A stretch of DNA of 64,000 bases from Candidatus Oxydemutatoraceae bacterium (GTDB lineage: Bacteria > Pseudomonadota > Gammaproteobacteria > Poriferisulfidales > Oxydemutatoraceae). A program made the translations under genes and the position numbers. The notes under the pieces were generated by a model. The model was given only the letters and a program-made list of their open reading frames with translations, had not been told where the DNA came from and ran no database searches. Of the stretch, positions 61,193 to 62,572 are shown piece after piece. The stretch lies in the NCBI GenBank assembly GCA_965219575.1, contig OZ244779.1, forward strand, positions 1,804,769 to 1,868,768. Direction: 5' to 3'. The first letter of the stretch is position 1; each line of letters begins with the position of its first letter.

Positions 61193-61330
61193 GGGAATTA
61201 TACAGATAACTTGACAGACTTGTTAGACCGCCTTGCTACCCTATCTTTTTGACGCTTCATAGACCAACCGATGTTGCAATCTCCACGCCCAGTTGCGGTA
61301 TTCCCAGCCGCCATGATGTTTAATGCAGCA
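61193..61330 (-). ncRNA. Putative omegaRNA overlapping the tnpB 3' end
   Basis: Inferred from TnpB biology; GGGCGTGGAG...hairpin...TGAAGCGTCAA segment follows NAALNI. Boundaries uncertain. Confidence 0.45.
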
Positions 61331-62406
61331 TTGATGTCCGCATTGTCCTCGTGTCCGCAATGCCGACACTTAAATATCGCTTGTGTTTTGCGGTTAGCTC
61401 TGTCTATCGCTCCGCATTTATTACAGGTTTGACTTGTGTATTGTGCCGGCACTTTCTCTACCTGTGTTTTGTAGCTTAAGCATTGCTCCAGTTTATACCA
61501 GCCACTCTTTAGTATCTCTCTGTTCAAACCTGACTTTGCCTTCACATGCTTACCCGGGCTGTCTATCGTCCCCTTCGCCGACTTCGTCATGCCTGCTGTA
61601 TTCAGCCCTTCCACATAGACGATGTCGTACTTGTCCGCTATTAGCTTGCCGGTTTTATGACACCAATTCGTCCGTGCAAATCGCTCCGCTTGATACGCTC
61701 TCTGTAATTTATACTTCGCTAGCTTGCGCCTATTACTACCCCTGACCCGTCTAGCAACCATTCGCTGATAACGCCTGCGTCTTGCTTCTTTACGCTTTAG
61801 GTTCGGCAGATGATACATTGTCCCGTCCGACAATGCTATCTGCCCCACATTCCTATCCAAACCTACCGCAGTGAGCAACTGAGACTTCTCCGCTAGTTCT
61901 ACTTCATAAGTAATATACGCATACCAATTACCCCGCTCATACTTCACTTGACCCGATACAAACTTCTCACCTTTATACCTATCCCCACCGACAAACTTTA
62001 TCCAACCAACCTTCTGTATGTAAATATGTTCGCCTGCTATTCGTGCTTTGATATAGTTAATCGGAAATGACGGGGCATGTGTGTTTCTGCCGTGAAACTT
62101 GGGTAATCCGCCATTACCCTTAAAGAAGTTCTTATAACTTGTCTCTATTGGTTTTAACGACATCTTCACTATGTTCGCAGAATAATTCTGCAACCACTTG
62201 TCGCAATACTTTCGCAAGGTCGTAAATTGCTTGCCTAGGGTGAAAAAGCTAAACCGGCTCTCGCCGTAATACTCGTATTCGTCCTTCAACTTTGCTACAA
62301 AGTGATTCCAAACATGACGACACGCTCCGGCAGTTCCATGTAATTGCTGATGCTTTTCATAGGTCGCCGGGTACAAGCGGTATCTAATTGTTCTATGAGT
62401 TTTCAT
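61198..62406 (-). CDS. tnpB: RNA-guided endonuclease TnpB with intact RuvC
   Basis: YRLYP...CRHVWN N-terminus; RuvC-I GLDRN, RuvC-II YVEGL, zinc finger CNKC..CRHC, Ruv[14 protein letters not shown]. Confidence 0.93.
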
Positions 62407-62572
62407 TGATGTAATTTAACATTTACTTGTTAAGTTATCTGTATAATTCCCTTTTTTTCATAGTAGCTTACTGTCGCATACCGAACGCATAAGCAAATTA
62501 TAGCCTCAACTCTATATCGCAGCCATGAAAACTTTGATGGGTTGTCAAAAATGTAGATGATAGAATACGCAC

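Follow-up and report, generated by a model that had tools for sequence, protein, structure and literature searches.

How does a tnpB gene that is enclosed by long terminal inverted repeats move, and what could its product do for such an element? TnpB is the ancestor of Cas12, and its known job is to prevent the loss of IS605 and IS607 elements after scarless excision. An earlier note on the 64,000-nucleotide stretch of DNA analysed here (the window) had proposed that the unit at positions 61193-62451 is a non-autonomous tnpB element mobilised by IS1595, and a bacterial parallel of Fanzor transposons. The first proposal is supported by the ends of the element, its target duplications and the co-occurrence of tnpB with IS1595 transposases. 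With a probability of about 0.8, we consider the unit to be one copy of a tnpB-only, non-autonomous transposon that is, or once was, moved by DDE cut-and-paste or copy-and-paste through IS1595-family transposases acting in trans, with no involvement of a Y1 or serine TnpA. The parallel with Fanzor holds as a reading, although the general idea had already been published in 2023 (PMC10691335).

In the parts on which we draw, that census of TnpB and Cas12 proteins describes six DDE-associated TnpB branches (DDE-1 to DDE-6) with inverted terminal repeats, and considers that solo TnpBs whose ends resemble those of transposase-bearing elements probably owe their mobility to a transposase acting in trans (PMC10691335). 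As DDE partners, the sections consulted name IS630 in the census (PMC10691335) and ISL2, IS630 and IS1031 in a 2026 review (PMC13565253). The term 'IS1595' has no occurrence in the main text of the census (PMC10691335), its supplements, where an unnamed IS1595 branch is possible, being set aside. TnpB inside a DDE transposon is thus already known, and, with the same restriction as to the census supplements, we found no description of an IS1595-borne TnpB or of IS1595 as a named partner in the literature. According to the sections of the review used here, pairings of TnpB with DDE transposases are rare in prokaryotes, and rigid TAM recognition has been suggested as an obstacle (PMC13565253). 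The present family supplies some 60 natural insertions whose ends are defined, partner transposases that can be identified, a candidate RNA and a TAM-like flank signal. It bears on whether, and how, TnpB can serve DDE transposons that have variable insertion sites and generate duplications.

A tnpB gene between inverted ends

The unit measures 1259 bp, with 24-bp inverted ends that pair at 23 of 24 positions and tnpB filling the space inside. Inverted-repeat arms of 29 nt each extend over 61188-61216 and 62428-62456 (90% complementary); it is their 24-nt cores, at 61193-61216 and 62428-62451, that match at 23/24. Two occurrences of the 20-nt terminus are present in the window, where 100 shuffles give an expectation of 0.00, and the terminal inverted repeats initially noticed are thereby borne out. 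The repeat on the tnpB-upstream (5') side (62428..62451, outer end at 62451) has a terminus that also bounds four further full copies in the genome. The repeat on the tnpB-downstream (3') side (61193..61216) adjoins the serS ATG at 61192 and contains the tnpB stop codon (61198-61200). Read on the minus strand, this downstream terminus closes with ...TTCCC, and a pyrimidine is its last base in all 20 elements aligned. The distance from the tnpB ATG to the outer end on the right is 45 nt, and to the inner edge of the inverted end 21 nt; both this 45-nt distance and the stop codon within the left repeat agree with the coordinates first described. Since tnpB is the sole ORF of the unit and a transposase gene is absent from it, the element should be regarded as a non-autonomous relative of IS1595 and not as an IS in its own right.

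The gene itself (61198..62406, minus strand) is intact and encodes a protein of 402 aa, which scores above the Pfam cut-offs for HTH_OrfB_IS605, OrfB_IS605 and Cas12f1-like_TNB and has the domain architecture of TnpB (HTH/WED-REC, RuvC, zinc ribbon). It reaches 202 bits on the NCBIfam model guided_TnpB (cut-off 100) and 163 bits on IS200_TnpB, under that model's cut-off of 425, and aligns over its full length with the solved chains of ISDra2 TnpB (E 2.5e-25, residues 6-376). Assigned by alignment position, the catalytic residues D184, E266 and D357 and the zinc-finger cysteines C328, C331, C347 and C350 (CxxC...CxxC) are invariant among eight diverse members. Profiles and alignment together confirm the earlier description of an intact TnpB with three RuvC acidic residues and a zinc finger. 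Among the five copies of the genome, copies W, A and B keep the four cysteines of the zinc finger; one cysteine is missing in C and one in D. An ORF length of at least 397 aa is maintained in 22 of 24 tnpB ORFs, and dN/dS values range from 0.11 to 0.35 (18 pairs with computable dS). These comparisons indicate that tnpB is under purifying selection across the clade, with its catalytic residues intact.

Copies, target duplications and probable partner transposases

Five full copies of the tnpB element are present in the genome, with 80-86% identity to the window copy, and 24-bp inverted ends bound the window unit and 58 other elements from the same genome, its relatives and metagenomes. A target duplication of at least 7/8 bp was observed in 37 of these 59 elements (perfect, 8/8, in 29), and the remaining 22 have 6/8 or worse; the chance of a duplication of at least 7/8 is ~0.0004-0.001 per element. 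In the genome's five copies the duplication is 8/8 in three, 7/8 in one and absent in one. The corresponding figures are 10 at 8/8 and three at 7/8 for 19 loci of related genomes, six and two for 15 metagenome loci (39-43% protein identity), and 10 and two for 20 further loci, in which the end pair was picked partly by duplication identity, with a slight bias toward duplications. Empty sites could also be identified: in three genomes of the same genus the flanks of copy A have an overlap of exactly 8 bp, and in one such genome those of copy C have an overlap of 7-8 bp. The tnpB gene and its inverted ends form a real transposon family, and the empty sites of relatives hold one copy of the 8 bp. 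The multicopy units with 8-bp duplications that the earlier note had proposed to look for are thus present. Where that note would have taken homologues with IS605-type hairpins as evidence against its reading, the inverted ends are kept down to ~39% protein identity, and the only homologue matches without them are those at ≤32%.

The IS1595 family is characterized by 8-bp target duplications and inverted ends beginning with GG (PMC8101967, in the part used here). The tnpB element resembles it in both respects, and in having the termini of elements with Zn_ribbon_IS1595 and DDE_Tnp_IS1595 domains; it differs in the lack of a transposase, in having tnpB as its only gene and in the structured RNA region at one end. 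The group concerned may be the ISNwi1 subgroup of IS1595, as the earlier note proposed from the end consensus of ISfinder. The genome contains 11 DDE_Tnp_IS1595 matches, and a 319-aa transposase with a Zn_ribbon_IS1595 domain reaches 193 bits on the NCBIfam IS1595 model (cut-off 75). IS1595 elements and tnpB elements of the genome have GGGAATTATATA termini and an 8-bp footprint in common. A 1348-bp IS1595 element, present in three copies (98.6-100% identity) with perfect 8-bp duplications, begins with the same 12 nt as the termini of the genome's other tnpB elements (12/12); the window copy has one mismatch to them, a C at position 11. A deletion derivative of this 1348-bp element is found in the window at 55073..55322. 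It is a 250-bp non-autonomous element with GGGAATTATATA-type termini and a perfect 8-bp duplication, TTTATTTA, just as had been described for a MITE in the gene that we take, following the earlier note, to be zapE.

Within the genome, no transposase element has the inner end sequence of the tnpB element, the nearest matching at 6-7/12 inner nt. Same-genus genomes contain IS1595 elements that agree with the tnpB element over the full 24 bp of the ends, and transposase-bearing ones with 22-24/24 identical ends and the 8-bp footprint occur in same-genus and same-order genomes (L174, 24/24; L041, 22-24/24; L182 and L183, 22/24). The L041-type transposase has at most 50% identity to anything in the genome, and L041 looks truncated at its C-terminus. 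Each of the three end types of the tnpB elements has an IS1595 counterpart that matches at 10-12/12 inner nt, against 3-7/12 for non-cognate pairs. Among 21 relatives, all nine tnpB-positive genomes are also transposase-positive, as against five of the 12 tnpB-negative ones, these counts coming from related genomes and so not being independent. Both a transposase with matching ends (12/12 terminal nt in the genome, 24/24 in a same-genus genome) and its co-occurrence with tnpB, which had been suggested as checks, could therefore be found. The remark that no Y1 or serine TnpA lies nearby was too modest: neither Y1_Tnp (PF01797), for which control genomes gave matches, nor Resolvase (PF00239, serine TnpA) has a match anywhere in the genome, a single contig of 98.9% completeness.

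A tblastn search with the transposase against 102 tnpB loci and their flanks turned up no single element with both genes, and the two transposase fragments detected nearby are both outside the tnpB element. With the two genes on separate elements, mobilisation would depend on a transposase acting in trans. The family is similar to the DDE branches of the census in having a prokaryotic TnpB within inverted terminal repeats, with its 3' end near the transposon end; it differs from them, as they are presented in the passages used here, in that their tnpB and DDE genes are neighbours, whereas 0/102 loci have both inside one end pair (PMC10691335). Considering that the copies are only 80-86% alike and that an exact match to the inner end is lacking among the transposase elements of the genome, the mobility of the tnpB element in this genome today is doubtful.

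Could the inverted ends be foreign to the tnpB gene? An ordinary IS200/IS605 (IS1341-type) element might have landed once in a small inverted-repeat element, and TnpB proteins of this kind do usually reside in IS200/IS605 and IS607 elements, according to the part of the review cited here (PMC13565253); the IS200_TnpB score of 163 bits points the same way, though it is below the cut-off of 425. In the same source, IS200/IS605 elements are described as having no inverted ends or duplications, a Y1 TnpA and insertion directed by a fixed 4-5 nt site that is also the TAM (PMC13565253). The tnpB element, unlike these, has inverted ends, 8-bp duplications, variable targets and a flank signal of at most 1-3 nt, and it is unlike IS607 too, given its ends and duplications and the absence of a serine recombinase match in the genome. 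The short distance from the ATG to one inverted end, together with the position of the stop codon inside the other, leaves no space in which IS605 ends could fit. The genome lacks a Y1 transposase, and contigs of three other runs that bridge both junctions speak against an assembly artefact. Finally, like ends with 8-bp duplications recur at different sites in the 59 elements, among homologues down to 39% identity, and this clade-wide conservation refutes a single landing, to which we assign next to no probability. A transposon with inverted repeats and duplications that is moved by some other DDE transposase, its termini resembling those of IS1595 through common descent or convergence instead of partnership, is harder to dismiss, yet we regard it as quite improbable. 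It would account for the lack of a matching inner end among the transposase elements of the genome and for the age of its tnpB copies at 80-86% identity, and the genome does have a second IS1595-family group (226-aa ORF, eight copies) with different ends. The IS1595 elements of same-genus and same-order genomes, with their 22-24/24 ends and 8-bp footprint, argue against it, as do the counterpart found for each of the three end types and the presence of the transposase in every tnpB-positive genome.

The flank purine and a possible role for TnpB

All 36 insertions that have a duplication show a purine at U-1, the base immediately 5' of the duplication on the side upstream of tnpB (binomial p ~1e-10). 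In this set, C stands at U-2 only once, and G is never found at the first position of the duplication. At D+1, which mirrors U-1, a pyrimidine is seen in just 12 of the 36, and the purine mark is thus one-sided. Transposase-bearing IS1595 elements with like ends (n = 20) have the purine in 9/20 cases when read in one orientation and in 6/20 in the opposite one, which differs from the tnpB elements with Fisher p values of 1e-6 and 7e-9, respectively. For the window copy, which has no duplication, U-3..U-1 corresponds to 62452..62454 (minus strand), with A at U-1. Because D+1 has no pyrimidine bias, a duplication of 9 bp and a symmetric preference for the target were both rejected as the origin of the purine; a promoter origin was rejected as well, on the grounds that U-7..U-1 is unlike a -35 box and U-2 is C in 1/36. 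In its sequence pattern, the one-sided purine looks like a TAM; it could also stem from an asymmetric transpososome peculiar to tnpB-bearing donors. Such a one-sided base at the insertion site is not described for the DDE-TnpB branches in the portions of the census and the review used here (PMC10691335; PMC13565253).

The 3' end of tnpB appears to encode a structured RNA. In the region 61193..61343 (minus strand), conserved covarying helices at ~61343-61251 are followed by a variable stretch that runs into the inverted end. The structure comprises 26 pairs, with 97.5% of cells paired against 33-41% when the partners are slid, and compensatory changes are seen in seven pairs; codon periodicity is gone in the final ~100 nt of the tnpB ORF. 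An Rfam scan of 60900-62800 (E up to 1) gave no match. We infer from the covariation that this region is a candidate omega-RNA scaffold. The element is in this respect similar to ISDra2 TnpB and the IS1341 group, with a full-length protein homologue and a structured RNA region that overlaps the 3' end of the ORF. By analogy with the omega RNAs of TnpB and Fanzor, in which the DNA next to the transposon end provides the guide, the guide of this element would be encoded by the first 20 nt of serS (61173..61192, minus strand), directly 3' of the putative scaffold.

These features suggest a scenario in which the structured region would serve as the omega-RNA scaffold and the guide would be read from the adjoining flank, that is, the 3' copy of the duplication and the DNA downstream of it. 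The targets of TnpB would then be alleles free of the element, cut where the guide sequence follows a short TAM with a purine at its end. Filled sites would be protected, as the ...CCC terminus of the element sits at the TAM position. An empty allele, once cut, would be repaired from a filled copy, and the element would be driven or retained. Insertions without a TAM would not persist, and their loss would explain the purine at 36/36 sites. It is tempting to speculate, at somewhat less than even odds, that a TnpB lineage has been fitted in this way to a DDE transposon inserting nearly anywhere, its TAM having shrunk to a purine at -1 after 'not C', with ...CCC as an anti-TAM and the cutting of empty alleles as a drive. 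Two genomes that are ~7% diverged have in common a 99.4%-identical tract which stops 37 nt beyond the RNA-side end of one copy, and TnpB-driven homing might be its source. If this scenario of TAM shrinkage and drive were true, the clade would be a natural source of near-TAM-less compact nucleases and would provide the first sequence-level sign of TnpB homing for bacterial DDE transposons. If their TAM really consists of one or two bases, nucleases of 400 aa would be attractive for practical use in genome editing.

Alternatively, IS1595 could mobilise the element while TnpB is a tolerated passenger or has some other role, the purine reflecting the transposition machinery or the needs of expression and not a TAM. 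An OMEGA module, the review argues in the part cited, is of little benefit to DDE elements of the cut-and-paste type (PMC13565253). The 2.4-kb IS1595 elements L033, L038 and L042 of related genomes carry unrelated passenger genes and no tnpB, and the loss of a zinc-finger cysteine in two of the five genomic copies fits a passenger as well. We nevertheless find this unlikely, in view of the purifying selection throughout the clade (dN/dS 0.11-0.35) with invariant catalytic residues and of a covarying RNA structure placed where omega RNAs lie. Moreover, the purine rule fails in both orientations in IS1595 elements whose ends are nearly identical to these, and the flank bears no likeness to a -35 promoter box.

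IS1595-mobilised tnpB elements, as we understand them, are reminiscent of Fanzor, in which a TnpB-family nuclease resides on DDE transposons, often non-autonomous, with inverted ends and duplications (PMC3627910, in the part used here). They differ from Fanzor, which is known from eukaryotes and giant viruses, in their bacterial host. In the section of the review cited here, the 5' duplication of Fanzor elements is taken to belong to the TAM, and its 3' counterpart lies in the RNA scaffold (PMC13565253); the 8-bp duplication of the tnpB element, unlike that of Fanzor, varies, and the constrained base is just outside it. Merlin is not among the listed Fanzor carriers, the word having no occurrence in the part of that source used here (PMC3627910). 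The present family ties TnpB to IS1595, and thereby to a group with Merlin relatives. Indeed, Merlin transposons are the eukaryotic relatives of IS1595.

The copy next to serS

The window copy is flanked by TCTAACAT and TTTTTTTC and has no target duplication; the earlier note was right that no clean one is visible. The start codon of serS (59915..61192, minus strand) directly abuts the end of the element, so that the native 5' leader of serS is now on the other side of the element. The comparison with empty serS-ubiG loci that had been suggested proved possible: in three same-genus genomes the site is empty, and the ATG is directly joined to the sequence now found at 62452 onward. The lack of a duplication and the position against the serS start are not accounted for by ordinary IS1595 insertion. 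Recombination between copies and an adjacent deletion were considered as causes of the missing duplication and rejected because the two flanks are contiguous in these three relatives. The contigs from three other runs are independent assemblies that bridge both junctions of the window copy, and none of them contains the empty-site joint. An outward promoter-like site directed toward serS is one of four matches, against 3.4 expected from shuffles, and can be taken as a lead only.

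The tnpB unit and its candidate RNA

The 1259-bp unit at 61193-62451 of the window is bounded by 24-bp inverted repeats matching at 23 of 24 positions, and its 20-nt terminus occurs only twice in the 64 kb, both times at the unit ends (none expected from shuffles). The sole ORF, tnpB (61198-62406, minus strand, 402 aa), fills the unit, with 45 nt between its ATG and one outer end, and with its stop codon inside the opposite inverted repeat. The encoded protein scores above the cut-offs of three Pfam families, reaches 202 bits on NCBIfam guided_TnpB and aligns over its full length with the solved ISDra2 TnpB chains. 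A diverse alignment that includes it shows no variation at RuvC residues D184, E266 and D357 or in either CxxC pair; judged by its sequence, the protein is a canonical TnpB. The ends, the ORF and these residues bear out the earlier note, which had described an intact tnpB packaged between terminal inverted repeats.

As read from its coding sequences, TnpB is maintained across the family, with pairwise dN/dS of 0.11-0.35 (18 pairs with computable dS) and at least 397 aa in 22 of 24 ORFs. Codon periodicity is visible in the conservation of most of the ORF but is lost in the last ~100 nt, where third codon positions vary as little as the other two. An alignment of 20 element tails yields a consensus structure of 26 base pairs, in which 97.5% of cells are paired; sliding the partners by 1-3 columns lowers this share to 33-41%. 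Compensatory changes occur at seven pairs (2-3 in slid controls) and double changes in 53 cells (3-12 in slid controls). In the window, these covarying helices span about 61343-61251 (minus strand), with ~58 nt further to the inverted end. Rfam returned no match for this tnpB 3' structure. It lies where an omega RNA would be expected, and is presumably expressed.

Probable mobilisation by an IS1595-family transposase

Five full copies of the element are present in the single-contig 2.37-Mb genome, the other four (A-D) being 80-86% identical to the window copy. All five ORFs are intact (402-405 aa), and the genome's TnpBs are these five plus one fragment, all of this family. The genome also holds fragments and four derivatives of 140-226 bp. 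Target duplications of 8/8 and 7/8, respectively, flank three and one of the five genomic copies, the window copy alone having none. The corresponding figures are 10 and three of 19 elements in related assemblies (labelled Ca. Porisulfidus, Gammaproteobacteria, Thiotrichales or Ca. Oxydemutatoraceae; 22 loci, less one without an end and two truncated), 10 and two of 20 further copies in relatives, where choosing the end pair partly by duplication identity introduces a mild bias, and six and two of 15 in a metagenome clade at 39-43% protein identity. Altogether, 29 and eight of 59 elements carry such duplications, against a chance expectation of ~0.06 cases at 7/8 or better; one of these 37, L017, is the orthologue of copy B. 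The GGGA(A/C)TTATATAC ends are kept in the metagenome clade, and none of this type was found around metagenome TnpB matches at 32% identity or less. Finally, the flanks of copy A overlap by exactly 8 bp at empty sites in three same-genus genomes, and those of copy C by 7-8 bp in one genome; these empty sites settle that the elements are a family of transposons whose ends are inverted and whose insertion duplicates 8 bp of target.

Neither Y1_Tnp nor Resolvase has a match in the genome, whereas control genomes did give matches, so that the lack of a Y1 or serine TnpA, noticed earlier only near tnpB, holds genome-wide. DDE_Tnp_IS1595 has 11 matches. Three of them are a 319-aa protein combining Zn_ribbon_IS1595 and DDE_Tnp_IS1595 domains, with 193 bits on NCBIfam IS1595 (cut-off 75); 8-bp duplications, a zinc ribbon and a DDE domain are the family marks given in PMC8101967. 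This transposase is carried by a 1348-bp element, of which the genome has three copies (98.6-100% identical), each with a perfect 8-bp duplication; the 250-bp element at window 55073-55322 arose from it by deletion. At the 25-bp ends of the 1348-bp element, the first 12 nt are those found at the tnpB-element ends elsewhere in the genome, and the window copy has one difference in the 12. In a same-genus genome, a transposase-bearing IS1595 (L174) matches the tnpB element at 24/24 end positions; the ends of other IS1595 elements match at 22-24/24 (L041) or 22/24 (L182 and L183), and the inner half of the end is common to eight identical IS1595 copies in another genome. Each of three tnpB end types has an IS1595 counterpart sharing 10-12 of 12 inner nt (3-7 in mismatched pairs). 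The tnpB-element termini may be of the ISNwi1 subgroup type, as suggested in the earlier note.

This TnpB occurs in nine of 21 relatives and this transposase type in 14, including all nine TnpB-positive ones, although co-occurrence among kin is not an independent test. Among 102 tnpB loci with flanks, none has tnpB and the transposase inside one pair of ends; transposase fragments lie near tnpB at two, both outside the element. The multicopy insertions and the IS1595 transposase with matching ends that the earlier note had called for thus exist, and shared ends, 8-bp duplications and empty sites support its reading of a non-autonomous, IS1595-mobilised element. We consider it likely (probability about 0.8) that the tnpB/RNA element is mobilised by IS1595, the partner being, we infer, an IS1595-family transposase acting in trans.

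TnpBs with DDE partners are not unprecedented. A 2023 census (PMC10691335) describes six branches of DDE-associated TnpBs bounded by inverted terminal repeats, names IS630 as the partner of one, and proposes that solo TnpBs with like ends are trans-mobilised. A 2026 review (PMC13565253) gives ISL2, IS630 and IS1031 as partners and describes such pairings as rare in prokaryotes. 'IS1595' is absent from the main text of the census, the Fanzor paper mentions neither IS1595 nor Merlin, and our literature searches turned up no description of an IS1595-type element carrying TnpB, although the census supplements may hold one. Set against the portions of this literature covered here, the partner family, the exclusively non-autonomous form and the insertion-site signature described below appear new.

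Several other elements were noticed. A same-family genome carries eight identical 1382-bp IS1595 copies (L164-L171), each with a perfect 8-bp duplication and one in-frame TGA in the transposase frame. In one related genome, three 2.4-kb IS1595 elements have GGGAATTATATACTTA ends (the 8-bp duplication is perfect at two) and carry passenger genes alongside the transposase: two ORFs in L033, and in L038 a frameshifted ORF pair resembling a DNA methyltransferase with an HNH-like tail (the third is L042). A second IS1595-family group, a 226-aa ORF without zinc ribbon whose ends are not of GGGAATTAT type, has eight copies in the genome, one at window 5905-6318 (G000:C1:1810673-1811086, in genome coordinates). 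The four short tnpB-element derivatives (G000:C1:396851-397074, 421896-422035, 1149330-1149527 and 2197522-2197747) retain 85-129 nt of the end on the tnpB 3' side (RNA-side end) vs 46-73 nt of the other, with the conserved RNA helices partly or mostly kept. The tnpB element at G000:C1:663666-665504 exceeds the usual length by ~580 bp, its internal pieces rearranged, and is an interrupted or rearranged copy. Adjoining copy A is a ~250-bp repeat (L184:4698-4953, G000:C1:334163-334418), probably a small non-autonomous element of very high abundance: of four same-genus genomes searched, three gave dozens of matches to it (74-96% identity), and for the fourth none was listed.

A one-sided mark at insertion sites

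Insertions were oriented by tnpB, and the empty site was rebuilt as tnpB-upstream flank (U), 8-bp target and downstream flank (D). In 36 independent insertions with duplications of at least 7/8, the base adjoining the target upstream (U-1) is always a purine (36/36; background 0.53, p about 1e-10); C occurs once at U-2, and G is never the first target base. A palindromic target preference is ruled out as the source of this mark, as a pyrimidine stands at the mirror position D+1 in only 12/36. In a control set of 20 IS1595 elements that carry the transposase and have similar ends and good duplications, a purine is found in 9/20 in one orientation and 6/20 in the other (Fisher p 1e-6 and 7e-9).

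The final base of the element terminus, ...CCC, is a pyrimidine in 20/20 elements. A TnpB recognition signal (TAM) would lie at U-1 if the flank 3' of the RNA-side end supplies the guide; in filled sites, the terminal ...CCC takes up this position. The mark could then be a short TAM and the tip of the inverted end a self-protection, with TnpB-dependent drive or retention filtering which insertions persist. This reading, to which we give somewhat less than even odds, rests on the homing model as presented in PMC10055086 and also draws on IS drive in multicopy replicons as proposed in a preprint (10.1101/2025.02.20.638934).

A purine at U-1 is also seen in both short derivatives bearing 7/8 duplications. 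Copy B (in locus L187, G000:C1:226776-234034) and its orthologue L017 in a same-genus genome share site and duplication within a tract of 99.4% identity that starts ~2.26 kb upstream, takes in the element and stops 37 nt past the RNA-side end. Beyond that point, identity falls to 83-93%, similar to the 92-93% of other flanks between these genomes. A recent transfer may lie behind this, with co-conversion ending close to where TnpB is predicted to cut, or it may be coincidence.

The copy at serS

The window copy directly adjoins the serS start codon, a 121-bp spacer separating its opposite side from ubiG. Three same-genus genomes have the empty site, where the serS ATG runs straight into the sequence now beyond the element's other end; the element therefore went in precisely at the start codon and neither duplicated nor deleted any target bases, confirming the earlier remark that no clean duplication is visible. 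These contiguous flanks also rule out recombination between copies or an adjacent deletion. In three other runs, contigs span both junctions, with flanks a few per cent diverged in two of these runs, and no empty-site joint was seen.

The insertion separates serS from its native leader (window 61190-61226 and 62452-62470), and only the element itself now feeds the gene. A promoter-like CTAACA-18-TATAAT in the inverted end faces serS, such hits being no commoner than in shuffles; if used, it would yield a nearly leaderless serS mRNA. In one same-genus genome, an independent, related tnpB insertion (L014/L062) lies in the serS-ubiG spacer, 52 bp from the serS ATG, in the same orientation; its duplication, AATTATAG, is perfect, and this target is similar to the terminus of the element itself.
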